Shown: positions 10,957-32,000, numbered from the stretch's first letter. The stretch: DNA of 32,000 bases from Candidatus Helarchaeota ASGARD archaeon Hel_GB_B (GCA_005191425.1 SUPR01000003.1:36986-68985); one strand, 5' to 3'. Notes: a model not told the origin generated them from the letters alone. Program-made: numbers and translations.

Positions 10957-10974
10957 ATAATTGGAGAACAAATA

Positions 10975-12372: not shown

Positions 12373-12898
12373 AGGAGTTACCGTCTGGTTTACTGGACTA
12401 TCTGGGTCTGGAAAGTCTACAATTGCGGACTCTTTAAAGGAAAAACTTAAATCTATGGGAATTAAAAGGGTTGAAAGAATTGACGGCGATGTTCTTAGAA
12501 AAACTTTATGCAAAGATCTTGGCTTTACAAAAGAAGACCGCAATACGAACATTGAAAGAGTTATTTTTATTGCTAAATTATTGACTAGAAATGATGTTAT
12601 TGTATTAACAAGCTTTATTTCTCCTTATAGAAAATTGAGAAATATTGGAAAAAAGGAAATCAAAAATTTCATCGAAGTTTACGTGAAGTGCCCTTTAGAA
12701 GAATGTATTAAACGCGACCCAAAAGGACTATATAAAAAGGCATTAAACAATGAGATCCAAAATTTTACTGGGATATCTGACCCCTATGAAGAACCAAAAA
12801 ATCCAGACCTAATTTTATATACTGATAAAGAAACCGTTGATGAAAGCGTACAAAAAGTTCTCAACATAATCATAGAAAAAGGTTATATCGAAATTTAA
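12347..12898 (+). CDS. cysC: Adenylylsulfate kinase
   Basis: VWFTGLSGSGKSTIA, IDGDVLR, DLGFTKEDR, RDPKGLYKKA, FTGISDPYEEP. Overlaps the upstream stop. Confidence 0.97.
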   Translation: MGKIMVKYKGVTVWFTGLSGSGKSTIADSLKEKLKSMGIKRVERIDGDVLRKTLCKDLGFTKEDRNTNIERVIFIAKLLTRNDVIVLTSFISPYRKLRNIGKKEIKNFIEVYVKCPLEECIKRDPKGLYKKALNNEIQNFTGISDPYEEPKNPDLILYTDKETVDESVQKVLNIIIEKGYIEI

Positions 12899-12983
12899 TA
12901 TAAAATTTATTCAATAAAGCAAAAATAATTTATTTGAAGCTATGTAATTTGTAATATCTTTTATTATATTTTAAAAAATAAAT

Positions 12984-14703: not shown

Positions 14704-15561
14704 TCAAATAAAATTAACTGGGACTCTATTCAAATCAAACCCAAGCAATTCTGGATTTATTCCTAAAGCTAATCCTAATAATTGTGTATAATAAAGTACT
14801 GGGATTTCATATTTTTCATTATATTTTTGTTCAACCTTCATTTGCATCACGTCTAATTGAACCGCGCAAAAAGGACAAATTGTAATAAAGCAGTCTGCAC
14901 CGGCTTCTTTTGCACCAATAAATTTATTGCGGACCATTTTTAAACTCAAATCTTCATTAATTCCCAAAATAGGCCCACCACAACATTGATCTTTAAATCT
15001 CCATTCTATTGGTTTTGCTCCGGTTATTATTGTTAAATTCTCAAGTATCTTAGGATTTTCCGGGTCATCTAAATTTGCAACATCTGATGGCCGTATTGCA
15101 TGACATCCATAATGTATTGCAACTTTTAAATTGTCCAATGGATTAACTATTTTATTTTTTATAAAATCAATACCAAGATCTGTATATAAAACTTCTATAA
15201 AGTGTTTTACCTTAATTGTACCATTATATATTAAATTGGTCTCACTCAATATTTCATTAATTTCATTTTTTAAATTTGATTTTGAGTCAAGAATATGTTT
15301 TGAATCTTTAAGGGTAGAAAAGCAACCATTACACAAAGTTACTAAGTCCATATCATCTTTTTCAGCAAGAGCTAAATTATATGCTCCTAATGACAGCCAT
15401 GTTTTAATATCTACAGATTTTATATTTACTGTTCCACAACAAACTGCGTTTTGTAATTCTATAAGTTCTATATTTAATGCTTTAGCTACCTGTCTTGCCG
15501 AAGCATCATAATTATTCATTCTTGCAGGTATTGTACACCCTGTATAGTATAAATATCGCAT
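14704..15561 (-). CDS. hdrB: CoB--CoM heterodisulfide reductase subunit B
   Basis: Two CCG domains: YYTGC, VCCG, TLCNGC, HYGCH, QCCGG, TICPFC. Confidence 0.95.
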   Translation of the reverse strand: MRYLYYTGCTIPARMNNYDASARQVAKALNIELIELQNAVCCGTVNIKSVDIKTWLSLGAYNLALAEKDDMDLVTLCNGCFSTLKDSKHILDSKSNLKNEINEILSETNLIYNGTIKVKHFIEVLYTDLGIDFIKNKIVNPLDNLKVAIHYGCHAIRPSDVANLDDPENPKILENLTIITGAKPIEWRFKDQCCGGPILGINEDLSLKMVRNKFIGAKEAGADCFITICPFCAVQLDVMQMKVEQKYNEKYEIPVLYYTQLLGLALGINPELLGFDLNRVPVNFI

Positions 15562-16107
15562 CTAATCTCCTTTATCATTAGATTTAAATAATTTCATTAT
15601 TCCTATTTTATTAAAAATCTTCTTAATTGCATTTTTATCAAAAGGACTTACTTCTGGTAATCCTAAATCTTCTCTTTCTTCTTCTTGGAAATCAGTAACT
15701 TCAATAGCCCTTCCATTTTCATAAATTGCTGCTGTGAATAACTTAATACTTTTCGGATATAATCCATGTGATGTAGCAATATTCTTTAAACCAAAAAAAA
15801 TATCAGTAATTTTAACATTCTGAGGGCATCGTTCTTGACAAATATAACATGTCAAACATAACCATATCGCATTACAATTAATTACTTTATTTATTAATGA
15901 TAATGAAATCATCTGCATTATTTGATGTGGCATTAGATCAAAAGCATTAGAAATTGGACAAGAGGCAGTACATGTTGTACATTGAAAACAGTATTTTAAA
16001 CTTTTAATATCAATATCTGGTAATTTAAAAAGTTTCTCTTTAAATTCTAAATCTGTTGCGCCCAAATCAAATATTTCATTTGTTGTTATTTCAATATTTC
16101 TTACCAA
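15562..16107 (-). CDS. hdrC: Heterodisulfide reductase subunit C
   Basis: CFQCTTCTASCP and CLTCYICQERCP ferredoxin motifs; TTG start; abuts hdrB. Confidence 0.93.
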   Translation of the reverse strand: MVRNIEITTNEIFDLGATDLEFKEKLFKLPDIDIKSLKYCFQCTTCTASCPISNAFDLMPHQIMQMISLSLINKVINCNAIWLCLTCYICQERCPQNVKITDIFFGLKNIATSHGLYPKSIKLFTAAIYENGRAIEVTDFQEEEREDLGLPEVSPFDKNAIKKIFNKIGIMKLFKSNDKGD

Positions 16108-16417: not shown

Positions 16418-16807
16418 TCAATATTTTTCAATTTTTAAGTTTTTTATTCTATTAAAGTGTTTAATATTTTTAGTTACCAAATCTAAATTATTTGACAAAC
16501 AAATACCTGCAATGAATAAATCTCTTATATCAATTAATTTTCCAGATTTTTTTAGAGATGCCAGAATAATGCTGGATTCCGTGGCAGCTTTCTCATTAAA
16601 ATTAAAAATTTCTAGATTTGATAGTAATTTTTTTACTTCATTGACATTATTTTCTTTATTTACTGATATATTTGCACCATATAATAATTCAAAAATATTA
16701 ATAGCCGTTGTAGATAAAGGCTCGTGTTCCAGTTCTTTCAATTTTTTTAAAGCTTCAATTTTTCCTCTCAAAAAATCGATTAACAGGTTTGTATCAAGAC
16801 ATTTCAT
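16418..16807 (-). CDS. vapC: VapC PIN-domain toxin (ribonuclease)
   Basis: CLDTNLLID, TTAINIFEL, IRDLFIAG, LVTKNIKHF. Confidence 0.93.
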   Translation of the reverse strand: MKCLDTNLLIDFLRGKIEALKKLKELEHEPLSTTAINIFELLYGANISVNKENNVNEVKKLLSNLEIFNFNEKAATESSIILASLKKSGKLIDIRDLFIAGICLSNNLDLVTKNIKHFNRIKNLKIEKY

Positions 16808-16838: not shown

Positions 16839-17057
16839 TTAAACATTTATTTTCCAACTATCCCATAAATTTTTAAGATCTTTTTCTATTTCAAGGTATT
16901 CGTCATCATTCATTTGAAATTTACCAAAACTTTCCATTATACGACCAAATCTTTTAGTTAATCTAAGAATAACATCTGAAAAGCTTTCATTTTTTAGTTT
17001 TTCTTTTAACAAAGCATTGTATGCCTCTTCAGAAATAGTTATTGTTTTAGAACCCAT
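16839..17057 (-). CDS. vapB: VapB antitoxin (archaeal DUF217-like)
   Basis: MGSKTITISEEAYNALLKEKLKNESFSDVILRL; directly upstream of vapC. ATG at 17057 is preferred over the track start at 17078. Confidence 0.88.
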   Translation of the reverse strand: MGSKTITISEEAYNALLKEKLKNESFSDVILRLTKRFGRIMESFGKFQMNDDEYLEIEKDLKNLWDSWKINV

Positions 17058-17504
17058 ATGTATATATTTAAATAACATTTATTTATAAAATTTTTTCTGT
17101 TTAAATGTATGTTTATGGATTGTTAAATGTTGTAGATAAACGAATACAACATAATTATTGTTAATAAGAGACTAAAAAGCAGCTTCAACAAATTTTAATT
17201 GATTTTCCATGGTAATTATCCAATATTTGAATAAGCTTATAAATTATAGATATATTTATCCAATCATTTTATTTAATTTCAATGTATTTACTTAATTAAA
17301 TGAATAAAAAATGAATTTTAAGTTATATTTTCCTTTTTGAGATAATTGAACATAGTAATCAAAAACATTTTAAGAGCAATAAAGAGTTTAGACAAGGAAA
17401 TTCTGTTATCAAAAAATATATGGGCAAATGAAAAAATATGTTATTCAAGAAAATTAGTTTTTTTTAATCTTTAACACGACAAGGATCATGAACCTTCATA
17501 TTAA

Positions 17505-17740
17505 ATTACAATTAATAAACTTTATTTATTACTAATAGCGAAATCATCTGCATTATTTGATGCGGCATTAGATCAAAAGCATGAGAAAATGGAAAAAATA
17601 TAGTATATATAGTGTATTGAAAACAGTATTTTTTACTTTTAATATTAATACTTAGCAATTCAAAAGTTCATCTTTAAATTTTAAATCTATTGTGCCCGAA
17701 TAAATATTTCATTTGTTGTTATTTCAGTATTTCTTATCAA
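17505..17740 (-). pseudogene. hdrC: Decayed 5' fragment of hdrC (part of repeat copy B, 17505-17777)
   Basis: TTG start at 17740 matches hdrC TTG at 16107. It has small indels relative to copy A, CFQCTTCTASCP has become CFQYTIYTIFFP, and homology stops near 17500. Confidence 0.88.
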
Positions 17741-17746
17741 TTTGAT

Positions 17747-19990
17747 TTAGCTCCCAAGAAATTCAAATTTATTTAGATACTCACTAACAATTTCTGGTAA
17801 ATCCCAAACTTTTTTAAATTCAATTGCACCATTTGGGCATCGTTCTACGCATTTTTGGCAAGCAATACACTTTATTGGTGTTATATTAATAGTACCAAGT
17901 CCCAAAAAATTTTCAGGCAATTTTATTGGCTTGCTAGGTATTTTTAAAGCTATATTTTTTATTATATTAATAATCATTTTCTTGTTTATCGGTAATTCAT
18001 CAAGTTCTTCTTTAGATAATTTAAAAATCTCTTGAATATCCCACTCATTTACCAAGTTTAATGCTGATTCTGGGCAAACTTCTTCACAGCTTTTACATGC
18101 TATACATTTCTTAATATCCCAATATATTTTTCCAAAACCGACTATATATTGTTCATAATCAAATTCAGTTTCATATTTTATTTTTGGAATTTTTATTGGA
18201 ATAAGATTTTCAATATTGATATCAATTTCTTTTTTACCTAAATTTCTAGATATTGAATCAAAAGTTCTTAAAAGTCTGTGATAATCTTTAAGAATATTAT
18301 TTAAATCTGTCCTAATAACTTTATTTGAATTATATTTGATATTACTTAAATTAGTTAATTCTTCGTCTATTTTCAATAAAGTTTCAAAAACAATTTGAAA
18401 ATTTTCCCCGTTAATTTCGCTTATTTTCAACAAAAAGTCTAAATCATTTAAAATTACATATATATTATCAAATAATGTATCCAAAAATTTTTCTGCTTGG
18501 CTTAAAACATGTGGGACATCATATATGAAATAATCTTTTTTTTCGTCAACAATATCTATTTGTTTATCATTTAACATAGTAAGAAGTAGCTCAATTATTT
18601 CTTTTTGCTCAATTTTTGTGATATTGGATAGATCAAAAGGTGTCATAGGGCCATAATTTTTTAAAGATACAATTATTAGAGCTTTATTGAATTCTGTTAA
18701 TAAGTTTTGATCCAAAAAATTAGCCAAATTAAAATTATCTTCTGTATTTTCTGTCTGTAAGAATTGACCTTTTTCAAAAACCAATGGGATTTTTTTCATA
18801 TTAAATAATTCAATTCCAGCTAAAACCCTCAAATTAAGTCTATTGACTTGTCCTTGCTTTTCAAATTCAATAATCTTATCATTAAATAATTGAATTTCAT
18901 CATTTATTAATTTTAAATATTTTAAAATATTTTCTTCATTCATTATTTCCGAATTTTTTGAAATAATGTTTTTAATTTTATCTATTTTTATAAAAAAGTA
19001 ATTTACTACTTGAAATTCTCTTAATTTATTAAAATTCTTGCTTAAATCAATTATATTTTTTAGTATTTTACTTACAGGGGGTATATCACAAATTAATTTG
19101 TAGTTAATTGTATTATCTTTTATAATAACATCCAATAATCTTCTATCCATTAATAAAAAAATAGCTTTTATTATTATATCACTTGATAAATTACTGATTT
19201 TAATCAAATCATCAAAATCAAATTCTATTTGGCTATTTAAAAGGAAGATAATTAATGATGCGACTAATTCTACCAGTAATGTATTTTGAATATACTTTAC
19301 TGTTTCTGCTTCATTTATTTTTTTTGTTGTAAAAGCTTTTTTAATTTGTATAAACGAGAATGTCAATTTTTTATTTTTTAAAATTCCAATTAATTTATCA
19401 TTTACATATTTAAAAAAAGAATTTATGACCTGTTCTTCAGGTATTAATTTTAGATTATTAAAATAAATAAATAAATTGCGTAATTCATCCATTGATCCAA
19501 TATGTTGTAATTCTTTTAAATTTGGATTCGGTATTATCTTATTTATTATATTTTCTATATTATCTAAGTAATTATTAATCTTATTAAAAGTATTATTGAT
19601 TAATTTTTCATCATAACTCTTTTTTATTCTATATAGTTGTTCCTTTTTATCTCGAACTTTCAAATTTTGAATATCTTTAATTTTTTTAATATCAATTGAT
19701 ATTTCTTCAAATATATTTAATAGATGTTTTTTTAAATTAAAATCTCTGACGTTATAAAGGATATTGTTAGAGTTAAGAAAAGATATTAAATCATTTTTTA
19801 TGATGTTTTTTACTTTTTTTATTGAACCCTTAAATTCATTAAATTTACTAATAATTTCGTTAAATTCCTTCTTAATACCTGTATTTACATTAAAAGTTCT
19901 CTTTTTTATTGTTAATAATTTTAATATTTGTTCTAAAAACTCCAATCTTTTTGATGGTATCTGAATATTTTCGATCAATAACCTACTCAC
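17747..19990 (-). CDS. Large helical protein with putative winged-helix modules and a C-terminal 2x[4Fe-4S] ferredoxin domain
   Basis: CIACKSCEEVCP and CIACQKCVERCP at the C-terminus; wHTH-like segments (LIIVSLKNYGPMTPFDLSNIT...EIIELLLTMLNDKQI); GTG start overlaps the upstream stop. Confidence 0.75.
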   Translation of the reverse strand: MSRLLIENIQIPSKRLEFLEQILKLLTIKKRTFNVNTGIKKEFNEIISKFNEFKGSIKKVKNIIKNDLISFLNSNNILYNVRDFNLKKHLLNIFEEISIDIKKIKDIQNLKVRDKKEQLYRIKKSYDEKLINNTFNKINNYLDNIENIINKIIPNPNLKELQHIGSMDELRNLFIYFNNLKLIPEEQVINSFFKYVNDKLIGILKNKKLTFSFIQIKKAFTTKKINEAETVKYIQNTLLVELVASLIIFLLNSQIEFDFDDLIKISNLSSDIIIKAIFLLMDRRLLDVIIKDNTINYKLICDIPPVSKILKNIIDLSKNFNKLREFQVVNYFFIKIDKIKNIISKNSEIMNEENILKYLKLINDEIQLFNDKIIEFEKQGQVNRLNLRVLAGIELFNMKKIPLVFEKGQFLQTENTEDNFNLANFLDQNLLTEFNKALIIVSLKNYGPMTPFDLSNITKIEQKEIIELLLTMLNDKQIDIVDEKKDYFIYDVPHVLSQAEKFLDTLFDNIYVILNDLDFLLKISEINGENFQIVFETLLKIDEELTNLSNIKYNSNKVIRTDLNNILKDYHRLLRTFDSISRNLGKKEIDINIENLIPIKIPKIKYETEFDYEQYIVGFGKIYWDIKKCIACKSCEEVCPESALNLVNEWDIQEIFKLSKEELDELPINKKMIINIIKNIALKIPSKPIKLPENFLGLGTINITPIKCIACQKCVERCPNGAIEFKKVWDLPEIVSEYLNKFEFLGS

Positions 19991-22157
19991 TTTTTAATTT
20001 AAATTTTGGTAATTTATCGAATTCATTTATTCTTTTTACAAAATCTTTAATTTTCAAGTATAATTTATTATTATCAGCTGCAAATGAAGTAAAGAATTCT
20101 ATTCTATTTTTTTCCCAACCAATTGCCTCTAATATTTCCTTAGCAGCTTCTATTTGCATTTTTGCTTTAGAATTTCCATCAATATAATGGCATTTACCTT
20201 CATCACAAGCAATTAAAAAAACGCCATTAGCTCCTTCGTTAAAACATTTAAGAATATCTAATAATGACAATCTGCCACCACATGGTAAACGAATTAACCT
20301 GATATTATCTGAATAGCTTTTTCTTAATAATCCAAGCATATCTACCGAGGCATATGCACATTCATTACATACAAATCCTAGAATAATTGGTTTTTCAAAT
20401 GTATGGGAATCTTTTAAAATAGATTCTATTTGAGCAAAAATCTCTTTGGGAGAATAATTATTTAATTTTGCTGCTCCAGTTGGGCAAACTGCATTACAAA
20501 CTCCACATCCACGACAAGAATATGGATCAATTAAAGCAAGGTATCTTACATCAGTTGAAGTTTCATTTTCCTTTTGTACCATATATGGGACTGAAAACGG
20601 GCATATCCTAACGCATAGTTCACAGCCATTGCATAGTTCAGGATCTACAATCGTAAAATTCTGAGTATTAAAGATTTCAGGGAATTCAAATAATTTAATT
20701 ATTTCCATCGACACTGAGTTTGCTTCTTTTAATGTTTCATCAATTAATTTAGGGCCCAAAACTGTTCCGCACGCAAAAATTCCATTTCGTGAAGTTTCAA
20801 TATTATTTTGTTTTGGATATTTTCCTTGAATAAATCCTTTATTCCATGTTTTAATATTGATTTGATTTAATAACTTTATATTCTCCTTATTAGGGATAAT
20901 TGCTGTGGATAAAACAATTAAATCTGGATGAATTATTAAGACTTTTTGTAATAATGAGTCGTAAATTGTTACTGACAACTTATTCTGTATTTTTTCAATT
21001 TTTCCCAATTCTCCTCTTATAAAATTTATTCCTAAAGACCTGGCTTTTTGATAATCATATTCTGCTTTCCAAGGTGTCCTAATATCTATGTAAAGAATTG
21101 TAATTTCAAATTTTGGGAAATTGTTAAGAATTTCAATAGAATAATTAATAGCTGTTATACAACAATATTTACTACAATAATCATAATACTTTTTATTTCT
21201 TGAACCAACACATTGGACTATTAAAATTCGCTTTTTTAACTTGTTATCGCTAAATATTTTCATTAAATCTTTATCAGCATTATTTATATTATGATTTTTT
21301 AAAAAATTAAAAAATTCTCCTAACTCAGATAAGGTAATTACATTTTTTTCTTCATCATATTTGTAAAAATCATTTAATTTTGGCCGAAAAATATCATGGC
21401 CCGTGGCTAATACTAGAACGGACGCATTTAATGTTTTTTCATTTAATTTATTATCGTGTTCTACGATTTTAACGGTATAATTCCCCAAATTTCCTATTAT
21501 CCATTCAACATTCCAATTAGTTAATATTCTAATTTTTTGAAAGTTTAATGATTTTACAATTTTTTCTATGAAATCTTTTCCTGATGTATTATATGGATGA
21601 ATAAATGGTAATTTATTGATAAATCCACCCAAGTAATTTTCTTTTTCTATAATTGTTATTTCATAACCAAGATCTTGTAAATTTTTTGCTATCTGTAATC
21701 CTGCTATTCCCCCCCCAATAATAACTAACTTCTTTTCTAATTCTTTGACCTCATTTGTTTTATATTCTTTAGTAAATAATTTATCAATGTGCGATTTTAT
21801 TAATATTGTAGCCTTGTAAGTAGCTTTATTAGATTCATGAACCCAAGCACATTGTTCGCGTATATTTGCGACTTCAAATAAGATATTTTGTAGATTATAT
21901 TTTTTTAACTCAAGCTTAAGTTTCATTTCTATTATCTGTGGTGTACAACCTCCAAATACAATACCTTTAATATTTTTTGTTTCCAAGATTTTAATTAGTT
22001 TTTGAAATCCTTCAGTTGAGCATAAATGGTCAAAAATATAGATGGAAGAGAGGGGAAATTCTTTTTTTAAATCAGATTCTATTAATTTAAAATTTAATTC
22101 CATTGTATTTCCGCAAGTACAAAGGCAAATTAAAACTTGATCTTGGTTAAGAAATAT
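19983..22157 (-). CDS. hdrA: HdrA-like flavoprotein (CxC domain + FAD module + ferredoxin) fused to MvhD; start uncertain
   Basis: GGCTP, ANIREQCAWVH, IGGGIAG, QCVGSR, CNGCELCVRICP, CRGCGVCNAVCP, then MvhD (GFVCNEC, LPCGGR, IACDEGKCHY). The conserved ICLCTCG lies upstream of the track ATG (22103) in the same open frame. Confidence 0.85.
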   Translation of the reverse strand: MFLNQDQVLICLCTCGNTMELNFKLIESDLKKEFPLSSIYIFDHLCSTEGFQKLIKILETKNIKGIVFGGCTPQIIEMKLKLELKKYNLQNILFEVANIREQCAWVHESNKATYKATILIKSHIDKLFTKEYKTNEVKELEKKLVIIGGGIAGLQIAKNLQDLGYEITIIEKENYLGGFINKLPFIHPYNTSGKDFIEKIVKSLNFQKIRILTNWNVEWIIGNLGNYTVKIVEHDNKLNEKTLNASVLVLATGHDIFRPKLNDFYKYDEEKNVITLSELGEFFNFLKNHNINNADKDLMKIFSDNKLKKRILIVQCVGSRNKKYYDYCSKYCCITAINYSIEILNNFPKFEITILYIDIRTPWKAEYDYQKARSLGINFIRGELGKIEKIQNKLSVTIYDSLLQKVLIIHPDLIVLSTAIIPNKENIKLLNQINIKTWNKGFIQGKYPKQNNIETSRNGIFACGTVLGPKLIDETLKEANSVSMEIIKLFEFPEIFNTQNFTIVDPELCNGCELCVRICPFSVPYMVQKENETSTDVRYLALIDPYSCRGCGVCNAVCPTGAAKLNNYSPKEIFAQIESILKDSHTFEKPIILGFVCNECAYASVDMLGLLRKSYSDNIRLIRLPCGGRLSLLDILKCFNEGANGVFLIACDEGKCHYIDGNSKAKMQIEAAKEILEAIGWEKNRIEFFTSFAADNNKLYLKIKDFVKRINEFDKLPKFKLKSE

Positions 22158-23493
22158 TATCCCTCCTAAAATTGTTAATTTCTTTAAAAATTTTTAGTGC
22201 AATACTTTTTGAAGATGTTATTGTATCAACAATATCCATTGGACTTATAACAGACCCACAAGCATAAATTCCTTCTATATTGGTGGTAATTTGATCTTCT
22301 TTTACATTAATAAAACCTTCAGAAGTTAATTCTAAATTTAATTTTCTGGATAATTCTATACTATCCTTAGACATAATAATTGCTGTACTTAATACTAATA
22401 AATCAGCTTGAATAATAAGTACCGCATTCAATAGAGCATCATATATTTTTAAAGTTAATTTATTATCATTTTCTTTATTTTCTGATTGTTTAATATCTAT
22501 TAATCTTCCCTTGATAAATTTCACATCATTTTCTCGAGCTTGGGTATAATATTTTTCTAAAAACCCCATTGTCCTAATATCTATGTAAACGATATAAACT
22601 TCAGGGGGTGGGTCATAATTTTCTTTTAGTATTTTTGCATTTTTGATAGCATATTCACAACAAAGTACACTACAATATCTATTATATTTTTCATCTCTAG
22701 ACCCTACACATTGCACTATAACTATTGATTTAACTTCTTTTTGATTTGATGGACGTATTAATTTTCCTTGAGTTGGTCCGTTTGGGTCTATCATTAATAC
22801 TAATTGATATTGTGTTATTACATCTTTATATATTCCATATTTGTAGTCGTTCATTAATTTTGGGATATATTCATCAAAACCTGTTGCTAATATTATATCT
22901 GCACATGAAATATTTATATGGATGTCTTTTTCGTTTAGATTAATTGCATTGACCGGACATGATTTTTCACATAAATTACACCCAAATTTGCATTTATCTT
23001 GATTAATAATAAAATAGTTAGATATACATTGTGGATAATGGCTTGATATAATCGGAAGATCTGGATTTCCTTTAAAAACCTCATTTAAATCGTTAATTTT
23101 TGGGCACACTACTAAACATTTTCCACAATTAATACAATCTTGGTTAACATATGTAGCGTGTTTTATTAATTTAATTTTAAAATTTCCTTTTTTACCAGAG
23201 CAAGATTCAAGTTCTGTATTATTAAGTAGAACAATATTTGGATGAAAATTTATCCCAGATCGATAAAAGCATTTTCTTATGCCATCCTTATATTTGGTGG
23301 AAAGGAGACAAAAAAAACAATCATCTGTGGGAAATGCTTTATAGAGGTGGCCGGCATGCCCTCCAAAAAAGGGTTTTTTCTCAATTAAGTATATTTTAAA
23401 ACCCAAATCTGCCAATTGTATTGCCATATTTAGGCCAGCAATACCGCCACCAAAAATACTTATCGTTTTTTCTGTTTCCAAATTTTTACTCAT
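22147..23493 (-). CDS. hdrA: HdrA-like FAD module with inserted ferredoxin (N-terminal half of a split double HdrA)
   Basis: FGGGIAG, KAFPTDDCFFC, CINCGKCLVVCP, CNLCEKSCP, QCVGSRD, CSVLCCEYAIK. Confidence 0.87.
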   Translation of the reverse strand: MSKNLETEKTISIFGGGIAGLNMAIQLADLGFKIYLIEKKPFFGGHAGHLYKAFPTDDCFFCLLSTKYKDGIRKCFYRSGINFHPNIVLLNNTELESCSGKKGNFKIKLIKHATYVNQDCINCGKCLVVCPKINDLNEVFKGNPDLPIISSHYPQCISNYFIINQDKCKFGCNLCEKSCPVNAINLNEKDIHINISCADIILATGFDEYIPKLMNDYKYGIYKDVITQYQLVLMIDPNGPTQGKLIRPSNQKEVKSIVIVQCVGSRDEKYNRYCSVLCCEYAIKNAKILKENYDPPPEVYIVYIDIRTMGFLEKYYTQARENDVKFIKGRLIDIKQSENKENDNKLTLKIYDALLNAVLIIQADLLVLSTAIIMSKDSIELSRKLNLELTSEGFINVKEDQITTNIEGIYACGSVISPMDIVDTITSSKSIALKIFKEINNFRRDNIS

Positions 23494-23791
23494 CTTTTAC
23501 ATACCAATGATGTTTTAATCGTAATTTATATATTTCAAATTCCAAATTTGTTAATTCATTTTGTAGGGCTTTTATTTCAATATTAAATTTCTCTTGGGAT
23601 ATTTCTCCAATTTGCTTTTGGACGACCAAATTCTTTAATTCTAATTGTTTTAATTTTATTGATTTTTTAATCTCTTCAAATTTATCTCTATTTTCTGAGA
23701 TTATTTGTTTCCATTTATTACTAGATTTGTTTGTCTTATCTAATTGGTCGATAATTTCCATTAATTTTTTTCTTTTTTCTTCATCAATCAC
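23486..23791 (-). CDS. Hypothetical coiled-coil protein inside the hdr operon
   Basis: 101-codon ORF with GTG start, heptad-rich sequence and a GEISQEKF motif. Its stop overlaps the next ATG. Confidence 0.65.
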   Translation of the reverse strand: MIDEEKRKKLMEIIDQLDKTNKSSNKWKQIISENRDKFEEIKKSIKLKQLELKNLVVQKQIGEISQEKFNIEIKALQNELTNLEFEIYKLRLKHHWYVKDE

Positions 23792-23826
23792 TTTTCAAAC
23801 AACTTTATATTATTTCTACACACTAT

Positions 23827-23895
23827 AATCGATCCCTGTGCAAGGGTGTCCTATTCAGAGCAGCTCTTTAAGTCTGAACAGTCATTCTATCGATT
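23827..23895 (-). promoter_or_regulatory. SECIS element, eukaryote/Lokiarchaeota type, overlapping the mvhD stop codon
   Basis: Minus strand reads AATCGAT-AGA-ATGA-CTGTTCAGA-CTTAAAGAGCTGC-TCTGAATAG-GA-CA-CCCTTGCACAGGG-ATCGATT. This gives an AUGA/GA kink-turn core, a 9-bp upper stem (one G-U), AAA 12 nt after AUGA, and a 7-bp basal helix. Confidence 0.85.
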
Positions 23896-24322
23896 TTTGC
23901 TTTTTTAATGGGTTAAGTCCCATTTTTTCCACATCTGCTGCGACTTTTTCAATGATATCTTTCAGTTTGTCAGCTTCGGCAGCTGATACAAAATGCATTT
24001 GTACCCGGTCTTCATTAATTCCAATGTCTTTCAATAATTCTCTAACAAATTTAACTCGTCTGGCGCATGCTAAATTCCCTACTTTATATTCGCAATCTCC
24101 GGGATGTCAACCAACGCTAATCACTGCATCTGCGCCATCTACTAGTCCCCGTAAGATGTGATTGACATCTACTCGACCTGTACATGGTAACCTAAGAATT
24201 CTTACTATCGGATTATATTGTAGCTTAAGAGTCCCTGCTAAATCTGCAGCAGAATAGGAACACCTCATACATGCAAACATTAATACGACAGGTTGTTGCT
24301 CTTTAATTTTACATCACTCCAT
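23882..24322 (-). CDS. mvhD: MvhD/VhuD [2Fe-2S] subunit, selenoprotein (UGA at 24107-24109); start at 24322 or 24307
   Basis: Manual translation: QQPVVLMFACMRCSYSAADLAGTLKLQYNPIVRILRLPCTGRVDVNHILRGLVDGADAVISVG*HPGDCEYKVGN...MHFVSAAEADKLK...KSIE*. The * aligns with Cys in SGCNLGECHY of the fused MvhD. Missed by the ORF track. Confidence 0.92.
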
Positions 24323-27300
24323 TTAATTATTTTCTTTTAAAATTGCATCTATTTGATTTAATATTTGGACATCTTTCCACCATCTTAAATCTCGAGCTCC
24401 AATTGGACAAGATGCTACACAGATCCCACATCCTTTACATTTCATTTCATCTGTTGTTGAAATCATTTTAAAAGGGCTAATATCTTTAATTGATATTGCA
24501 TCATATGGACATACAACTTCACATAGACCACATCCAACGCATTTTTCTATATCAACATCAGCTCTGATCATCTCAATTTCGATTCCTTTATGTTTAATTG
24601 CTGAAATACTTGCTGCCCCACGGGCAAGTGCAATGGTATCTGAAATATCTTTTGGAAAGGTAGACGCAGTATAAATTCCTGGAACTTTTGTCTCAACAGG
24701 TTTAAATTTTAAGTGAAGTTCTTCGATAAACCCATCTTCCGATCTAGTGATACCAAGTATTTTGCATAAATTTTCTATATCATCTGGTGCTTCTTGTCCA
24801 ACAGCTAAAATCACATAATCTATTTTTAATTCTAATTCTTTTTTTAATAATGTATCAAATATTTTTACTATAATCTTATCAGAATCTATTGCTTTGCTAA
24901 CTTTTGGTGGAAAATTCGGTTCCCACCTTATATAATTGACTCCCATTAATTGAGATGTGATATAATTTTCTTCCATATATCTACCAAATGCCCTAATAGA
25001 TTCTTTATAAAGTACATAAATCTCAGATTTTGATAATTCTTCCTTTAATATTATTGAATTAATAATTGAAAAATTACAACAAACTCTTGAGCAATATTCA
25101 TTACCTGGTTCGTTTTTTGTAGCTCTAGAACCAACGCATTGAATAAATACAAAACTATCATTTTCAGAAAAAAAATTATTTTTCAATTTTTCCTGAAATT
25201 CAAGAGAGGTCATGACATTTTTTATCAGACCATATCCATAATATCCTTTGGGCGGAGTCCATTCTTTTGTCCCAACCATGACTAAAATTGTGCCAACTTT
25301 AACCTTTAATATACGATTTTCTTTTTTTAACTTTATACTAACTTCAAAATTTCCTATAAATCCATTCAGATCTACAATTTCGGTTGATGTAAATATCTTA
25401 ATATTATTAAAATTATTAATTTGTTCCAATAATTTAAGTAATAAATTACGAGCTAACTCCTTTTTAGGAAATGTCTTATATAATTTATTTAACCTTCCTC
25501 CAATAATTTCCTCTTTTTCTATAATGATTACATTAAATCGTTTCTTTGCAAGGTCTAAAGCTGCGGACAAACCAGCCACTCCTCCTCCTATAATTAAAAT
25601 TGTAGGTATCAGGCTGATATTTTTCAGTGGAACTTTATCTAAATATCTTGCCCGCGCAATTTCTCCTCTTACCATTTCAATTGCTTTTTTAGTGGCAATT
25701 TCGGGATAATCATGATGGACCATTGAAATATGTTCTCTAATGTTAATTGGCCCCGTAAAATAAAATCTAGACAGACCAACATCCTCCACGCATTCTCTAA
25801 ATGTAGTTTCGTGGGTCAACGGTGAACATGAAGCGACAACAACTCTATTTAAATTGTATTTTTTAATGCTATCCTTAATTAATTGTTGACCTGGATTGGA
25901 ACACATGAATAAATAGTCTGTAGTAAATACAACATTTGGTAAATTACTAACTGCGTCAGCTACTTTTTTTGAATTAACTACATCCGAAATTACTCCTCCA
26001 CAATGGCACACAAAAACACCAATTCTAATTTGATCTTCATCCACATCATAAACTTTTTTCTTTTTTATTTTTATTTCAGGTAATTTCAATAAAGAGGTCA
26101 CCGCTGAAGCAGCTGCTTTTGCTTCAGCTATACAATCTGCACCATCACGCGGACCATGAGCAATTCCAATTACAAAAATTCCTGGTATATTTGTTAAGAT
26201 ACTCTCTAAATTTACATCCTTTTCTTTGATAAATCCATCAATTGGATCGATTTCGATTCCCAATCTATTAATTAATTTAAGAGTACTTTCTGGCAAGACA
26301 AATGCGCAATTTAGTACAACTAATTCAATATCATTAAGCTCAACTACATTATCTGTAAGTGTATCATTTAGTTTTAAGATCAAATTTTTTGTTATTGGGT
26401 CTTCTTGTATCTCAGAAACTCGTCCTCTAATAAATGTAATTTTATATTGTTCTTTTGCAATGTTATAATAATGCTCAAATAGTTTCCCTGCAACTCTTAT
26501 ATCTATATAACAAATATAAATTTCAGCGTCTGGTTCATGGAGCCTCATATTTCTTGCGTTTTTAATTGAAAACATACAACATACTTTATTACAATAATTA
26601 TGGTTAATTTGAGAATCTCTTGCTCCAACGCAATTGATCATTACAATTTTTTTAGGTCTCTTACCATCGCTAGGTCTAATAATTTTAGCAGATACTGGCC
26701 CAGTTGGGTGTGTTAACCGTTCAAATGTTAACGAAGTTATAACATTCTTGAATTTACCATATCCATATTCTTCTTTAACAGTTGGGTCGAATTCTTCTGC
26801 GCCAGTAGCTATTATTATCGCCCCTGCATAAAGTACAAAATCTTGGGGTTCCATATCATGGTCAATAGCATTAACTGGGCATGTTTGAACGCACATGTGA
26901 CAATTAATACAATAATTTTTATTTATTGTAGTAACTAATGGGATTTGTTGTGGGAAATCTAAATAAATTGCATGAGTTTTACAAAGTTTGAAATTATATT
27001 CTGAATCGATAAATACTGGGCAATTTTCAATACATTTTTGGCATCCTGTACATTTTTCTTCATCTACATATCGTGGATTTTTGTGAATAAAAACTTTAAA
27101 ATTTCCCACTGAGCCCTCTACTCCCAAGATTTCTGATAATGTCATAATATTTATTAGAGGATGATGATAAACAGAGTTCATTTTTGGAGTTAAAATACAT
27201 GCTGAACATTCATCGAAAGGAAATATCTTGTAAATTTTAGCGTAAATTCCTCCAATTGTTTGTTCTTTTTCTATAATATATGTAATATATCCAGCATTTG

Positions 27301-27397
27301 CTATATCCAATGCGCAGTCCATCCCTGATATCCCGCCTCCGATAATTATTACAGTTGACTTTGCGTCTTTTTCTGTATTTATCTCGCTATATGTCAT
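24323..27397 (-). CDS. hdrA: Double-module HdrA (two FAD modules, ferredoxins), no fused MvhD
   Basis: IGGGISG...FPFDECSAC, ferredoxin insert, CCMFSIK; then IGVFVCHCG, NIREHISMVH, IGGGVAG, CVGCGLCEVVCP, CKGCGICVASCP. Confidence 0.93.
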   Translation of the reverse strand: MTYSEINTEKDAKSTVIIIGGGISGMDCALDIANAGYITYIIEKEQTIGGIYAKIYKIFPFDECSACILTPKMNSVYHHPLINIMTLSEILGVEGSVGNFKVFIHKNPRYVDEEKCTGCQKCIENCPVFIDSEYNFKLCKTHAIYLDFPQQIPLVTTINKNYCINCHMCVQTCPVNAIDHDMEPQDFVLYAGAIIIATGAEEFDPTVKEEYGYGKFKNVITSLTFERLTHPTGPVSAKIIRPSDGKRPKKIVMINCVGARDSQINHNYCNKVCCMFSIKNARNMRLHEPDAEIYICYIDIRVAGKLFEHYYNIAKEQYKITFIRGRVSEIQEDPITKNLILKLNDTLTDNVVELNDIELVVLNCAFVLPESTLKLINRLGIEIDPIDGFIKEKDVNLESILTNIPGIFVIGIAHGPRDGADCIAEAKAAASAVTSLLKLPEIKIKKKKVYDVDEDQIRIGVFVCHCGGVISDVVNSKKVADAVSNLPNVVFTTDYLFMCSNPGQQLIKDSIKKYNLNRVVVASCSPLTHETTFRECVEDVGLSRFYFTGPINIREHISMVHHDYPEIATKKAIEMVRGEIARARYLDKVPLKNISLIPTILIIGGGVAGLSAALDLAKKRFNVIIIEKEEIIGGRLNKLYKTFPKKELARNLLLKLLEQINNFNNIKIFTSTEIVDLNGFIGNFEVSIKLKKENRILKVKVGTILVMVGTKEWTPPKGYYGYGLIKNVMTSLEFQEKLKNNFFSENDSFVFIQCVGSRATKNEPGNEYCSRVCCNFSIINSIILKEELSKSEIYVLYKESIRAFGRYMEENYITSQLMGVNYIRWEPNFPPKVSKAIDSDKIIVKIFDTLLKKELELKIDYVILAVGQEAPDDIENLCKILGITRSEDGFIEELHLKFKPVETKVPGIYTASTFPKDISDTIALARGAASISAIKHKGIEIEMIRADVDIEKCVGCGLCEVVCPYDAISIKDISPFKMISTTDEMKCKGCGICVASCPIGARDLRWWKDVQILNQIDAILKENN

Positions 27398-30300
27398 TTA
27401 TGATTTATCTCCTTAATAGTCTCCATTATATCATTTTCATAAAGTTTATCTATCTTCATCTTAAATTCGTTTATTATCTTTGCAAAAAGTTTTCCTTCAC
27501 TTGCCGAACACCATGACAACTGGAGTCGAACTGGATTTATTCCTGTATATTTTAAAATAATCTTTGCCATTTCAACTCTTCGTTGAGCTTGAAAATTTCC
27601 TGTTAAATAATGGCATTCTCCTAAATTGCAACCTGAGACTAAAACGCCATCTGCTCCAGCTTTAAATGCTTCTAAGATATGCTTTATACTTACACGCCCA
27701 CTACACATTAATCTAATAATTCTAACATTTGGTGCATACTGGAATCTACTTACTCCTGCGTCATCGGCCCCTGCATAAGAACACCAATTACACAAAAATG
27801 CAATTATTCGCGGTTCATGTTTCTTAGTTTTTAATGCAGTCTGCACCATCGAAATTATTTGTTCATCTGTAAAATGTTTCATTGAAATCGCCCCAGCAGG
27901 GCACGCCGCTGCACATGCCCCGCATCCTTTACAGAGTATTGGATTTACTACTGCTTTTACATCATTTTTAGAAATTTCTTCTAATTTAATTGCATTGAAT
28001 GGACAAGTTAATTCGCAAATTTCACAGGTTATACATAAATCTTTATTTACTGTAGCTATTATCGGCTCACTCTTTATTGTGCCCTTTAATAGCGGTATTA
28101 AAGCTCTTGAAGCAGCTCCTAATCCTTGAGATATACTTTCTTTTATTGTCCTTGGGCTTTGACATGTTCCACATAAATATATTCCATCAGTTGCAAAATC
28201 TAAAGGCCTATGCTTAATGTGTGCTTCAAGAAAAAATCCATTATATGAACGAGGGACTTTAATTAAATTTGAAATTTTTTCAGTATCCTCTGCAGGCATT
28301 AATGGTGTAGCTAAAACTATATTATCGACTATTATTTTTACTTCACAATTAAGTGTATTTGTATATGTTCTTATTATAAATTTATCATCTTTTTCCATTA
28401 CTTTTGGTTGATTTTCTCGAGTATACCTTATAAACAAAACGCCTAATCCTCTTATCTCTCTATATAGCTGTTCATCATCTCCATATACATTAATATCTCT
28501 ATATAATATAATTGGTTCAATTTTTGGAAATTTACTTTTAATATATTTAACTAATCTTAAGGTATTACTACAACAAATTGCCGAACAATAAGTAACTCCC
28601 AACCCTTCTTTCATTCGAGATCCAACACATTGAATAAATGCAATTTTTTCAATAGAACTTAATTTTTTAATTCCATTTTCTGATTTTAATAAATTATGAA
28701 ATTCAGTTTGTGTGTAAATATTTTTACTCCTTCCATAGTTAAAAAAGCTTTCTGGAACAAATTCTCGTGCTCCAATTGCTACAATAATTACACCTGGATT
28801 TAATATTATCTCATTATTAGAATTATTTTTTATTTTAACTTTAAAATTACCAATAGACCCTTCTATCTCTTCGATTTCTGCACCTAAATATATCTTACAG
28901 TTCTTATATTTAGTTATTTCATCAATAAATTTATTTATTAAATTTATTGGATCTTGGAGGTTGTTATTTATTCTATGAAGTTTATTCAAATATCCTCCCA
29001 ATTGCTCTTTTTTTTCAATTAAGTATACTTCAATCCCTTTAGATGCAATCAGTCTTGCTGCAGATAATCCTGAAACTCCTCCTCCAATTATTAACGCCGA
29101 TTGATTGACTTTTACCTTAATTTCTAATTGAGGTTCTAAGTATTTAGCCCGGGATATCGCCATTTTTACTAAATCTATTGCCTTTTCTGTTGCTAGAACT
29201 GGTTCATTTATATGAACCCATGAACATTGTTCTCTAATATTTGCAAATTCAAATAAATATGGATTTAGTCCCGCCTCTTTACAAGTATTTCGAAATAATT
29301 TTTCATGTGTTCTAGGAGTACATGCCGCAACTACTAATCTGTTTAAATTAAAATCTTTTATTATATTTTTTATATTATTTTGAGTATCAATTGAACATGT
29401 ATATAAATTAGTAGATGCATATACAACACCTGGAACTGTTTTTACTTCATTTAATATTTTATTAACATCTACTACTCCCGCGATATTTGTACCACAATGG
29501 CAAATAAATACACCAATCCGTAAATTTTTTTTAAAATCTAATTTTTCTTTTAAATCTAATTCCATTTGCTGATTTTTATCGGAAACGCATGCTAATGCAG
29601 CACCAGCGCTTGCATCGGCAACGGAATCTGGAATATCTTTAGGACTCTCACATGCACCGATCATATATACTCTTTCTTTTGATGTTCTGACCGGACTCAA
29701 CATTGATTTTGATTTAAAAAATCCAATTTCATTGGTTTCTATTCCAAAAATACGAGCAATTTCTTTTGTAGATTTCGAAGGAATAATTGATGTACATAGG
29801 ACAATTAAATCCGCATCAGTTTTTTCAATTTTTCCCGTATTTATATTTTCATAATATATTCTCACTTTCCCAGATTTTAATAAACTTTCAACCTCTGAAG
29901 GATATGCCCTAATATATCGTATATTATATTCTTCTTGGGCTCGTTCAACATATTCTTGAAAGCCTTTTCCATATGCCCTCATATCATTAAATAAAACTTC
30001 TATTTCAATGTTTGGATTATGTTCTTTTGCAATAATTGCTTCTTTAGTTGCATACATACAACAAATTCGAGAGCAATATCTATTAAACTTTATATTTCTA
30101 GACCCTACACAGTGTATTATTACAATTTTTTCGGCTGGCTTACCGTCTGATAGTCTTATAATTCTACCACCAGATGGACCTGAAGCACTCATTAGCCTTT
30201 CAAATTCTAATGCTGTTATTACATTTTTTATTTCTCCATATTTATATCTCTTAATAATATTAGGGTCAATCAAATCAAAACCTGTGGCAATAATTACTGA

Positions 30301-30855
30301 TGAAACTTGTAATTCAATTATTTTACCTTCAGGTGAATTATCAAACTCAATTGCACTAGCAGGACAAGTTTTTATACATGATCTACATTGAATACACGCA
30401 TCTTTATCTAAAATTGCTATATTTGGGACAGCTTGAGCAAATGGGATATATATTGCACTTCTCAATCTCAGTCCACAATCAAATTCGTTAGGTACTTTAA
30501 CCGGACAAATCTCTGAGCATTGATTACATCCAGTACATTTTTCCTCATTTACATATCTTTCCTTCCTTCTTATCCTAATTTTAAATCCATCTTCTATAGA
30601 TTCTGCACTTTCTAATTCACTATATGTTAATAAGCGAATATTTGGGTGCCTAGCACATTCTACCATTTTTGGAGCAAGAATACATATCGAACAGTCATTT
30701 GTTGGAAACGTTTTATCCAATTGTGCCATATGACCCCCAATAGATGGCGACTTCTCAACAAGATAAACTTTATTGCCTTGCTCAGCCAAGTCTAGAGATG
30801 CTTGGACACCGGCAATTCCACCACCTATTACCAATACATTTCTATAGATTTCCAA
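27394..30855 (-). CDS. hdrA: Double-module HdrA fused to C-terminal MvhD
   Basis: IGGGIAG...LDKTFPTNDCSIC, ALEFER, CCMYATK; IGVFICHCG, ANIREQCSWVH, IGGGVSG; two C-terminal ferredoxin motifs; MvhD FLCNWCSY, LMCSGR, SGCNLGECHY, WCSASE. TTG start. Confidence 0.95.
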   Translation of the reverse strand: MEIYRNVLVIGGGIAGVQASLDLAEQGNKVYLVEKSPSIGGHMAQLDKTFPTNDCSICILAPKMVECARHPNIRLLTYSELESAESIEDGFKIRIRRKERYVNEEKCTGCNQCSEICPVKVPNEFDCGLRLRSAIYIPFAQAVPNIAILDKDACIQCRSCIKTCPASAIEFDNSPEGKIIELQVSSVIIATGFDLIDPNIIKRYKYGEIKNVITALEFERLMSASGPSGGRIIRLSDGKPAEKIVIIHCVGSRNIKFNRYCSRICCMYATKEAIIAKEHNPNIEIEVLFNDMRAYGKGFQEYVERAQEEYNIRYIRAYPSEVESLLKSGKVRIYYENINTGKIEKTDADLIVLCTSIIPSKSTKEIARIFGIETNEIGFFKSKSMLSPVRTSKERVYMIGACESPKDIPDSVADASAGAALACVSDKNQQMELDLKEKLDFKKNLRIGVFICHCGTNIAGVVDVNKILNEVKTVPGVVYASTNLYTCSIDTQNNIKNIIKDFNLNRLVVAACTPRTHEKLFRNTCKEAGLNPYLFEFANIREQCSWVHINEPVLATEKAIDLVKMAISRAKYLEPQLEIKVKVNQSALIIGGGVSGLSAARLIASKGIEVYLIEKKEQLGGYLNKLHRINNNLQDPINLINKFIDEITKYKNCKIYLGAEIEEIEGSIGNFKVKIKNNSNNEIILNPGVIIVAIGAREFVPESFFNYGRSKNIYTQTEFHNLLKSENGIKKLSSIEKIAFIQCVGSRMKEGLGVTYCSAICCSNTLRLVKYIKSKFPKIEPIILYRDINVYGDDEQLYREIRGLGVLFIRYTRENQPKVMEKDDKFIIRTYTNTLNCEVKIIVDNIVLATPLMPAEDTEKISNLIKVPRSYNGFFLEAHIKHRPLDFATDGIYLCGTCQSPRTIKESISQGLGAASRALIPLLKGTIKSEPIIATVNKDLCITCEICELTCPFNAIKLEEISKNDVKAVVNPILCKGCGACAAACPAGAISMKHFTDEQIISMVQTALKTKKHEPRIIAFLCNWCSYAGADDAGVSRFQYAPNVRIIRLMCSGRVSIKHILEAFKAGADGVLVSGCNLGECHYLTGNFQAQRRVEMAKIILKYTGINPVRLQLSWCSASEGKLFAKIINEFKMKIDKLYENDIMETIKEINHK

Positions 30856-31140
30856 TTTTGCTCATCGGGCTATTTTAAACATAACTCAGCTTATTTAAAA
30901 AACCAAATGTTGAGTTTAAATTTTACAATTATAATTTTTTGACAATTAAAAGAAATATCCAAAAAACATGAATTTTAGAGCCAGACTAACTTTATAATTA
31001 AATTTTCTATATTAATAGTGAATATTTATCATAGTTAAATTAATTTTTATGAAACAATTTAATTATCTTTATTATATAAAAATAATCGTAAGAATGACCA
31101 ATCCACTAACTTAAAAATACAGAAATAAAGGTAATAAATA

Positions 31141-32000
31141 ATGAAAAATAAAATTATTACTTTGTTAACAGATTTCGGAACAATCGACCCATATGTATCC
31201 ATAATGAAAGGCGTTATATTATCAATAAACCCAAATGTAAATATCATAGATATTTCTCATAATGTACCGAAATTTGATATAGTAAAAGGTGCATTTATAT
31301 TATTCAATTCGGGTAGATATTTCCCAGAAGGAACAATCCACGTGATTGTAATAGACCCGGGAGTTGGATCTGAGAGGCTTCCAATTTTAATAAAAACAAA
31401 ACGATATTATCTAATTGGACCTGATAATGGTGTTTTAAGTTTATTAGCTTATAAAGATGGGATTGAGAAAATTTATACTTTAAACAACCCAAAATATTTT
31501 TTAGATCGTGTGTCAATGACATTTCATGGACGAGATATATTTGCTCCAGTTGCTGCACATCTGTCAATGGGTGTAAATCTCTCCGAATTTGGTAACGAAA
31601 TCCAATCCATTAAAAAAATCGATGAAATATATTTTTCTAATCCAATAATAAAAAGTGAATGTGAAATTATTTTTAATATCATTGATATTGATGGATTTGG
31701 AAACATTATAACAAATATTTCTGCAGAAACGATATTAAAATTGATTAAAAAATTAAAAGATAATATAAAAAAAGATGAAAAATTTATTTATATTAAGGTT
31801 TATAAAGGAGTAGATTTTGATGAATCAAAATCATTATCCATAAGTTTTCCATTTAAAAGAACATATGACGATGTAAAAAAAGGAGAATTCTTGGCATTAA
31901 TAGGCAGTCATGGAAATTTAGAATTTTCTCAAAACCAAGATAATGCAGCTAAACACTTCAAAATATTACCTGGAGATAAGTTATGTTTAAAATTATATGG
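31141..32000 (+). CDS. DUF62 SAM hydroxide adenosyltransferase (SAM-dependent chlorinase/fluorinase superfamily); runs off the window
   Basis: Not in the ORF track. From ATG at 31141: MKNKIITLLTDFGTIDPYVSIMKGVI, DISHNV, IDPGVGSER, GPDNG, TFHGRDIFAPVAAHL. No stop before 32000. Confidence 0.93.
   Translation, partial: MKNKIITLLTDFGTIDPYVSIMKGVILSINPNVNIIDISHNVPKFDIVKGAFILFNSGRYFPEGTIHVIVIDPGVGSERLPILIKTKRYYLIGPDNGVLSLLAYKDGIEKIYTLNNPKYFLDRVSMTFHGRDIFAPVAAHLSMGVNLSEFGNEIQSIKKIDEIYFSNPIIKSECEIIFNIIDIDGFGNIITNISAETILKLIKKLKDNIKKDEKFIYIKVYKGVDFDESKSLSISFPFKRTYDDVKKGEFLALIGSHGNLEFSQNQDNAAKHFKILPGDKLCLKLY

Follow-up and report, generated by a model that had tools for sequence, protein, structure and literature searches.

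We analysed a 32,000-nt stretch of DNA (hereafter, the window) from the Candidatus Helarchaeota Asgard archaeon Hel_GB_B (GCA_005191425.1 SUPR01000003.1:36986-68985), in which the minus-strand gene at 24307/24322..23882, counted from the first letter of the window, very probably (about 90%) encodes a stand-alone MvhD/VhuD-type iron–sulfur electron-transfer subunit with codon 72, an in-frame UGA, decoded as selenocysteine (Sec). The gene shows MvhD homology on both sides of this codon, the UGA is a true base call that is conserved in relatives under selection on the reading frame, a covarying selenocysteine insertion sequence (SECIS) element lies at the end of the gene, and the genome encodes Sec machinery.

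An earlier sequence-only reading had placed an MvhD gene at 23882-24322 without naming a strand, and had described MvhD homology on both sides of a TGA at 24107-24109 that stands where the two fused MvhD domains of the window have Cys; the coordinates are right, the strand is the minus strand, and both statements on the homology agree with what we found. The frame, 24322..23882, comprises 146 codons plus the stop when the TGA is translated as selenocysteine (U), and U72 (TGA 24109-24107) occurs in the context AVISVGUHPGDCEYK. With U read as C for scoring, residues 13-135 matched the PF02662 (FlpD/MvhD) profile over its whole length (1-123/123; 147.2 bits, cut-off 22.3; E 2.9e-43), which shows that the homology spans the TGA, and the solved MvhD/VhuD chains 7BKB_F, 9SFI_K, 9SW2_D and 5ODC_D matched across it with E values of 1e-30 to 3e-35. 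The PF02662 cysteine pattern (CxxC, PC, GC, xxxxC) is present, with C18, C21, C47, U/C72 and C77 invariant in the three MvhD modules of the window, and U72 aligns with the Cys of SGCNLGECHY in the 1153-aa open reading frame (ORF) and of IACDEGKCHY in the 706-aa ORF. The literature searched named no ligand residues of the MvhD [2Fe-2S] cluster.

VhuD had also been cited as a known selenoprotein of Methanococcales and Lokiarchaeota, which accords with PMC4989117 and with chain K of 9SFI, the VhuD of M. maripaludis. The two X (Sec) residues of that chain align with C21 and U72, the latter through VAGXKPNEC, and U72 is thus the second canonical VhuD Sec site; paralogues with two TGA codons have the Sec of their second site aligned with U72 and CNKU at the first site. 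The gene of the window represents a single-Sec variant, with no second Sec ~50 codons away; its first site is Cys, as it is in six orthologues.

These six orthologues came from a whole-genome search of 40 relatives, and all stand in the same operon context. A separate search of genome contigs for related loci yielded one from Bathyarchaeia only, at 46% identity. Codon 72 is TGA in the orthologue from the same genus (G001) and in three from another family (G002, G004 and G006), and TGT in two from a third family (G003 and G005), whose genomes still carry two-TGA paralogues; codon 21 is TGT in the window and TGT or TGC in 6/6 orthologues. Over the 55 codons after the TGA, the window and G001 are separated by 25 synonymous and 10 non-synonymous differences, with 29 of the 41 base differences at third positions, as compared with 29 synonymous and 9 non-synonymous differences before the TGA, where 33 of 46 base differences are at third positions. 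The reading frame past the TGA is under purifying selection, in the same pattern as before it.

A SECIS-like element (Table 1) begins at 23885, 224 nt past the first base of UGA-72, in line with the distance of about 220 nt given by the sequence-only reading. A strict pattern for such elements occurred 21 times in 7.1 Mb (both strands), several times behind other UGA-containing hdrA/vhuD genes, and the chance of a match within 100 nt of a stop is ~3e-4. The core, the 9-bp stem and a GA or AA tail were found behind 5/5 TGA genes (that of the window and four orthologues), the core letters being AUGA/GA in the window and G001, AUGA/AA in G004, and AUGC/AA in G002 and G006. Because MAFFT misaligned two SECIS subgroups, the helices were paired by hand in a script: in these five sequences all 9 pairs of the stem P2 form and 5 of them change on both sides between families, and all pairs of the closing helix P1 and the accessory hairpin P3 are intact, with sequences that differ between families. 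As the sample consists of five related sequences, this covariation is to be taken as supportive and falls short of statistical proof. Minimum-free-energy folding gave a three-way junction in 4/5 sequences (the window, or G000, and G001, G002 and G006), and the fold of G004 had no closing helix. No SECIS-like element was found behind either TGT orthologue, where the next gene follows ~20 nt after the stop, and in the relatives, the 160 nt that follow each of 15 Cys-type paralogues held no match to a relaxed SECIS pattern.

As described in the main texts of PMC4989117 and PMC11227280, lokiSECIS or type I eukaryotic SECIS-like elements consist of AUGA, a 9-bp stem, an A-rich loop and GA or AA, and lie at or over the end of the coding sequence; in Loki VhuU.1 the AUGA of the SECIS doubles as stop codon (PMC4989117). 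The accessory hairpin and the closing helix find no mention in the main texts of these two papers. The apical loop has 13 nt in the window (CUUAAAG...), 14 nt in G001 (GAUAAAG...) and 11 nt starting AAAAA in the orthologues of family f2. The AUGC core of the elements L023 (G002) and L025 (G006) occurs with the stem and both other helices intact, and is a variant not listed in the passages of PMC11227280 consulted.

The genome (3.54 Mb, 28% GC) encodes SepSecS, EFsec, PSTK and SelD (Table 1), the machinery to which the sequence-only reading had tied its proposal, together with a candidate for tRNA-Sec. This candidate carries the hallmarks of tRNA-Sec and is partly verified: a 9-bp acceptor stem (GGCGUUCUG/CAGAACGCC), a G73 discriminator, an encoded CCA, a 6-bp anticodon stem (ACCGGA/UCCGGU) and CU-UCA-A. 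It was apparently missed by ARAGORN and RF01852 because of several introns. Since ARAGORN recovered no more than 16 tRNAs from the entire assembly, a blank for tRNA-Sec from the standard finders means little.

Several points weigh against a Sec-containing MvhD/VhuD. The organism is uncultured, and insertion of Sec is predicted from its sequence. The tRNA-Sec candidate was checked by hand and requires removal of three introns; tRNA-Sec was detected neither by ARAGORN (default and relaxed settings), nor by RF01852 on the genome (E<=10), nor by Rfam on C9:5000-24000, nor by a GC-island scan of contig C9. The apical loop of 13 nt (CUUAAAGAGCUGC) departs from the published 11 nt starting AAAAA, and an Rfam search of 17000-32000 at E<=10 returned no match, leaving the SECIS with no Rfam model. 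A 106-nt segment that runs from shortly ahead of the stop to slightly beyond the next start codon folds no better than its shuffles (z -0.45), so that the structure rests on the delimited element and its covariation only. Last, NCBIfam NF045873 (F420-non-reducing hydrogenase subunit VhuD, an 'exception' model) scored 153.4 bits, under its cut-off of 215 bits; MvhD-family selenoprotein is therefore the safer name, VhuD is used loosely here, and the protein is not the methanococcal equivalog.

A wider reading, which we put forward tentatively, is that the orthologue group represents a natural Sec/Cys switch, in which syntenic operons of one archaeal order have UGA with a full SECIS in two families and, in a third, UGU with the SECIS missing and the spacer collapsed, all of them using Sec elsewhere; the SECIS would then be a three-way junction composed of a closing helix partly in the coding sequence, a kink-turn core around the stop codon of the gene, and an accessory hairpin whose loop contains GCA. 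If recoding required the accessory hairpin and the closing helix, the two-helix model published for Asgard SECIS would be incomplete, and the locus would offer a minimal test case with one UGA and one SECIS.

Improbable, by comparison, is the regulatory role that the sequence-only reading had added, namely that Sec-MvhD beside Cys-MvhD lets selenium supply tune the complex, or that termination at UGA-72 makes the downstream genes polar. The idea draws on Methanococcus, in which, according to the literature, selenium supply decides between the Sec (Vhu) and the Cys (Vhc) isoenzymes, and on the three MvhD modules in one co-directional gene string. However, the Methanococcus switch is transcriptional and operates between separate operons, whereas the modules of the window share 31-37% identity and two of them are covalently fused to different HdrA proteins, which makes them no isoforms competing for one site in the manner of Vhu and Vhc. 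The gene after mvhD has its own start codon, 90 nt past the stop, which rules out translational coupling, and Cys orthologues in genomes that still use Sec elsewhere argue for a neutral or fine-tuning Sec/Cys exchange. The proposal found no support.

It is more improbable still that a standard tRNA (for Cys, Trp or Arg) reads UGA-72 as a near-cognate codon and that the 3′ structure is a transcript-stability or terminator element. The position of the element at the 3′ end of the gene and its stable hairpins would suit such a role, but its AUGA/GA core, 9-bp stem and location are those published for lokiSECIS, and similar elements lie behind other UGA-containing genes of the genome, such as vhuD on contig C41 and hdrA on C167. 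The full Sec pathway, including a Sec-containing SelD, also speaks for Sec decoding, and a terminator is unlikely because the operon continues downstream. Among genomic open frames with 300 or more codons, 216 of 1368 end in TGA, as do 4 of the 24 ORFs in the window, which indicates that TGA is not reassigned genome-wide.

Slightly less probable again is a pseudogene or truncation, with the TGA as a true nonsense codon and either an N-terminal fragment of ~57-71 residues or nothing functional as the outcome. Prodigal-type calls in the ENA and JGI records do give two products for this gene, of 57 aa and 38 aa, although two NCBI assemblies call one 132-aa product across the TGA, so that the assertion that ORF calling had missed the gene applies to the former records and not to the latter. 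Nonetheless, five genomes from two families retain this TGA even though ~60-70% of aligned codons have diverged between them, purifying selection past it is as strong as before it, the covarying SECIS is retained only with TGA-bearing orthologues, and the frame holds neither frameshifts nor further stops. These observations, with the Sec machinery and the independent assemblies described next, bear out the proposal of a Sec-containing MvhD/VhuD.

A base-call or assembly error that hides a TGT or TGC codon, to which the sequence-only reading had drawn attention and for which no support was found beyond the low contig depth (3-5x), is excluded for practical purposes, because the gene and its downstream region are identical, TGA included, in four other assemblies (ENA ERZ27248458, JGI 3300033149, GCA_054386495.1 and GCA_054387055.1), no differing letter occurs at 24105-24131 in Logan contigs from four runs, each of a separate study on metagenomes of hydrothermal vents or marine sediment, and the orthologues of four other genomes have TGA as well.

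The start of the gene bears on the statement, also made in the sequence-only reading, that there is a single in-frame TGA and no other decay: from ATG 24322, codon 3 (24316-24314) is a second TGA, and the statement holds only if translation starts elsewhere. The ATT at codon 6 (24307) is moderately favoured as the start. Orthologue starts aligned with it are ATG (G002 and G003) or TTG (G004 and G006), and ATT stands there in the window and in G001; the PDB homologues start at the equivalent of query residues 5-8. A Shine-Dalgarno-like GGAGTGAT precedes the ATT, of which AGTGAT, the 5-nt spacer and ATT are kept in G001, and GAAGGA or TGAGGA is found at the same place in the other orthologues. 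GGAG or GAGG motifs occur before other genes of the window; the 16S 3′ end for comparison with the anti-Shine-Dalgarno sequence was not found in the assembly. ATG 24280, the start of the 132-aa product in the two NCBI assemblies, is a less likely choice and would remove the first beta-strand, and ATG 24322 with Sec at codon 3 is unlikely. Sec at codon 3 (MEUCK) was considered as the principal reading and rejected, since G001 keeps this TGA yet has no upstream in-frame ATG and the codon lies inside GGAGTGAT; it is probably part of the ribosome-binding site.

The locus is, in all essentials, the Asgard hdrA-vhuD/lokiSECIS arrangement described in the main texts of Mariotti et al. 2016 (PMC4989117) and Huang, Xiao & Zhang 2024 (PMC11227280), where Sec-VhuD (FrhD/MvhD) is encoded in hdrA-vhuD tandems with lokiSECIS; the main text of the latter gives FrhD/MvhD/VhuD as present in 57% of Sec-using Asgard genomes. 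Shared features are the UGA at a canonical Sec site aligned with Cys, vhuD directly after hdrA, a SECIS over the end of the coding sequence, UAA as the hdrA stop (UAA or UAG in the published cases), a tolerated terminal UGA, and Sec machinery of the archaeal/eukaryotic type. Unlike in the published pairs, Sec here occupies the second site only, with Cys at the first in the whole orthologue group, and the upstream 1024-aa type II HdrA is Sec-free, so that the SECIS serves one UGA. Other differences from lokiSECIS loci are the 13-nt loop, the conserved closing helix, the accessory hairpin with its GCA loop, and the probable ATT start.

Among better-characterized relatives, the VhuD of Methanococcales (PDB 9SFI/9T1S chain K, M. 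maripaludis) belongs to the same fold family (E 2.5e-34), and its second Sec aligns with U72. A subunit of the F420-non-reducing hydrogenase with two Sec residues (Wilting et al. 1997, cited in PMC4989117), it differs in having Sec at both sites, an archaeal SECIS of the GAA_A type, and a gene that is encoded with the vhuAGU hydrogenase genes. The Cys-type MvhD of Mvh/Fdh-HdrABC (5ODC chain D, 7BKB chain F) and the HdrA2 or type Ia HdrA fusions have the same domain, the five invariant Cys positions and, presumably, the same role as an HdrA-docked relay; they have Cys where the gene of the window has Sec, and need no SECIS. With eukaryotic type I SECIS the element shares the AUGA/GA kink-turn, the unpaired apical A, the 3′-UTR (untranslated region) location, action at a distance and the minimal-distance rule that spares a nearby stop UGA, but its upper stem is shorter (9 bp), it overlaps the coding sequence and it has an extra 3′ hairpin. 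SBP2 is not known from Asgard archaea (PMC4989117).

In the mechanism that we propose, the SECIS would sit on the stop codon as an AUGA...GA kink-turn core with a 9-bp stem and an A-containing apical loop, framed by the closing helix and the accessory hairpin, and would act ~220 nt upstream, with EFsec bringing Sec-tRNA(Sec) to a ribosome paused at UGA-72. The terminal UGA, lying within the SECIS core, would be too near to be recoded and would therefore terminate translation. In solved Mvh/Vhu/Fdh-Hdr complexes, the [2Fe-2S] cluster of MvhD/VhuD links the electron-input module to the HdrA flavin (PMC13518236). The product of the window gene would likewise dock on HdrA, its cluster passing electrons between the HdrA flavin and an electron-input module, with selenium at residue 72 possibly playing a part; its partner is most likely the unfused type II HdrA whose gene directly precedes mvhD.

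Selenocysteine biology as known is unchanged by this locus, such Asgard genes having been described in 2016 and 2024, and what is new amounts to small differences: a single Sec in place of two, an upstream type II HdrA that lacks Sec, a 13-nt loop and a probable ATT start. The case has value for annotation, as truncated-looking mvhD and hdrA genes in Asgard genomes are usually selenoproteins, and metabolic reconstructions that count these as fragments misrepresent Hdr-based electron bifurcation. With one UGA, one SECIS and Cys orthologues as built-in controls, the locus is a clean minimal example that could be used in a reporter assay of Asgard SECIS.

Table 1 Features of the selenoprotein gene, its SECIS element, its operon and the Sec machinery of the genome (window positions unless a contig is named).
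Feature	Position	Strand	Basis or remark
mvhD/vhuD-type selenoprotein gene (predicted)	23882..24322 maximal frame; likely coding sequence 24307..23882 (ATT) or 24280..23882 (ATG)	(-)	PF02662, NF045873, PDB chains
UGA codon 72, second canonical VhuD Sec site, GUHPGDC	24107..24109	(-)	alignment to Cys homologues and to the Sec of 9sfi_K
Codon 21, TGT (Cys), first canonical VhuD Sec site (CxxU)	24260..24262	(-)	alignment to the X of 9sfi_K 'CYQX'
ATT codon 6, probable start	24305..24307	(-)	aligned with orthologue starts
GGAGTGAT, Shine-Dalgarno-like, 5 nt before ATT, contains codon-3 TGA	24313..24320	(-)	predicted
SECIS, Loki/eukaryote-like type I	23827..23895	(-)	fold, hand pairing, match to published description
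SECIS closing helix P1	AAUCGAU 23895-23889 with AUCGAUU 23833-23827	(-)	5′ arm formed by the last sense codons
SECIS core AUGA	23885-23882	(-)	UGA 23884-23882 is the stop codon of mvhD
SECIS 9-bp stem P2	23881-23873 with 23859-23851	(-)	perfect, CUGUUCAGA / UCUGAAUAG
SECIS apical loop, 13 nt	23872-23860	(-)	CUUAAAGAGCUGC, AAA at loop positions 4-6
SECIS core GA	23850-23849	(-)	directly 3′ of P2
SECIS accessory hairpin P3	23846-23834	(-)	CCCU-UGCAC-AGGG, loop UGCAC with GCA
hdrA-mvhD fusion, 1153 aa, Cys at both VhuD Sec sites	27394..30855	(-)	Pfam/NCBIfam
Type II hdrA, 1024 aa, two thioredoxin-reductase-like modules, no in-frame TGA	24323..27397	(-)	Pfam/NCBIfam HdrA/HdrA2
Conserved 101-aa ORF, directly past SECIS	23486..23791	(-)	no Pfam or NCBIfam match
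hdrA-like flavoprotein, 448 aa	22147..23493	(-)	Pfam/NCBIfam
hdrA-mvhD fusion, 706 aa, Cys at site	19983..22103	(-)	Pfam/NCBIfam
747-aa protein, last ~170 residues 4Fe-4S ferredoxin-like	17747-19990	(-)	residues 1-570 without family match
hdrC-like	15562-16107	(-)	downstream, same strand
hdrB-like, CCG domains	14704-15561	(-)	downstream, same strand
SepSecS	contig C9		380 bits
EFsec/SelB, adjoining SepSecS	contig C9		276 bits
PSTK	contig C9		115 bits
SelD	contig C31		in-frame TGA inside
tRNA-Sec candidate	C9:14937-15126	(+)	search for 9-bp acceptor stem

The genes around Sec-mvhD run in one direction in the order 1153-aa hdrA-mvhD, 1024-aa hdrA, Sec-mvhD, 101-aa ORF, 448-aa hdrA-like gene, 706-aa hdrA-mvhD and the gene for the 747-aa Fe-S protein, followed by the hdrC- and hdrB-like genes, and no other internal TGA was found in any operon gene. 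The stop of the 1024-aa hdrA (TAA 24325-24323; the HdrA typing scheme is that of PMC12054007) abuts the mvhD frame. The product of the 101-aa ORF is probably helical or coiled-coil, and an Atlas search with it returned Asgard hypothetical proteins only; where the sequence examined extended far enough (L021, L022 and L026), the orthologous mvhD genes are likewise followed by a similar ORF. The 747-aa protein could be an uncharacterised electron-input module for the Hdr-like cluster, and an Atlas search with its N-terminal 580 residues gave no usable lead. No hydrogenase gene was found in the 32-kb window, and NiFe large subunits are encoded on other contigs. That the 448-aa and 706-aa hdrA-like ORFs form one gene joined by a Sec codon was ruled out, as they lie in different frames.

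According to published work, UGA is avoided as a stop in Loki hdrA genes that precede a shared SECIS. The UGA stop of the 1153-aa fusion, which overlaps the next ATG (ATGA, 27394-27397 (-)), lies ~3.5 kb upstream of the SECIS; if read as Sec, it would add four residues before a hard stop. Elsewhere in the genome, at C41:5764 and C41:6360 (+), a canonical two-Sec vhuD (CNKU ... SUHIGEC) follows an hdrA that appears to have its own SECIS-like element, located in a spacer of ~180 nt, whereas Loki hdrA-vhuD pairs are reported with a single shared SECIS.

A PIN-domain gene (16418-16807 (-)) lies between the hdrA/mvhD string and the hdrC- and hdrB-like genes. Beside the Hdr-like genes is a sulfate-activation/sulfatase cluster (9808-14504) with ATP sulfurylase (9808-10956), a phosphodiesterase-family protein (10975-12372), APS (adenosine phosphosulfate) kinase (12347-12898) and a sulfatase (12984-14504 (-)). 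Outside the window, the same contig carries a full-length actin-family gene (C118:27048-28157 (-); 446 bits), in agreement with an Asgard archaeon.

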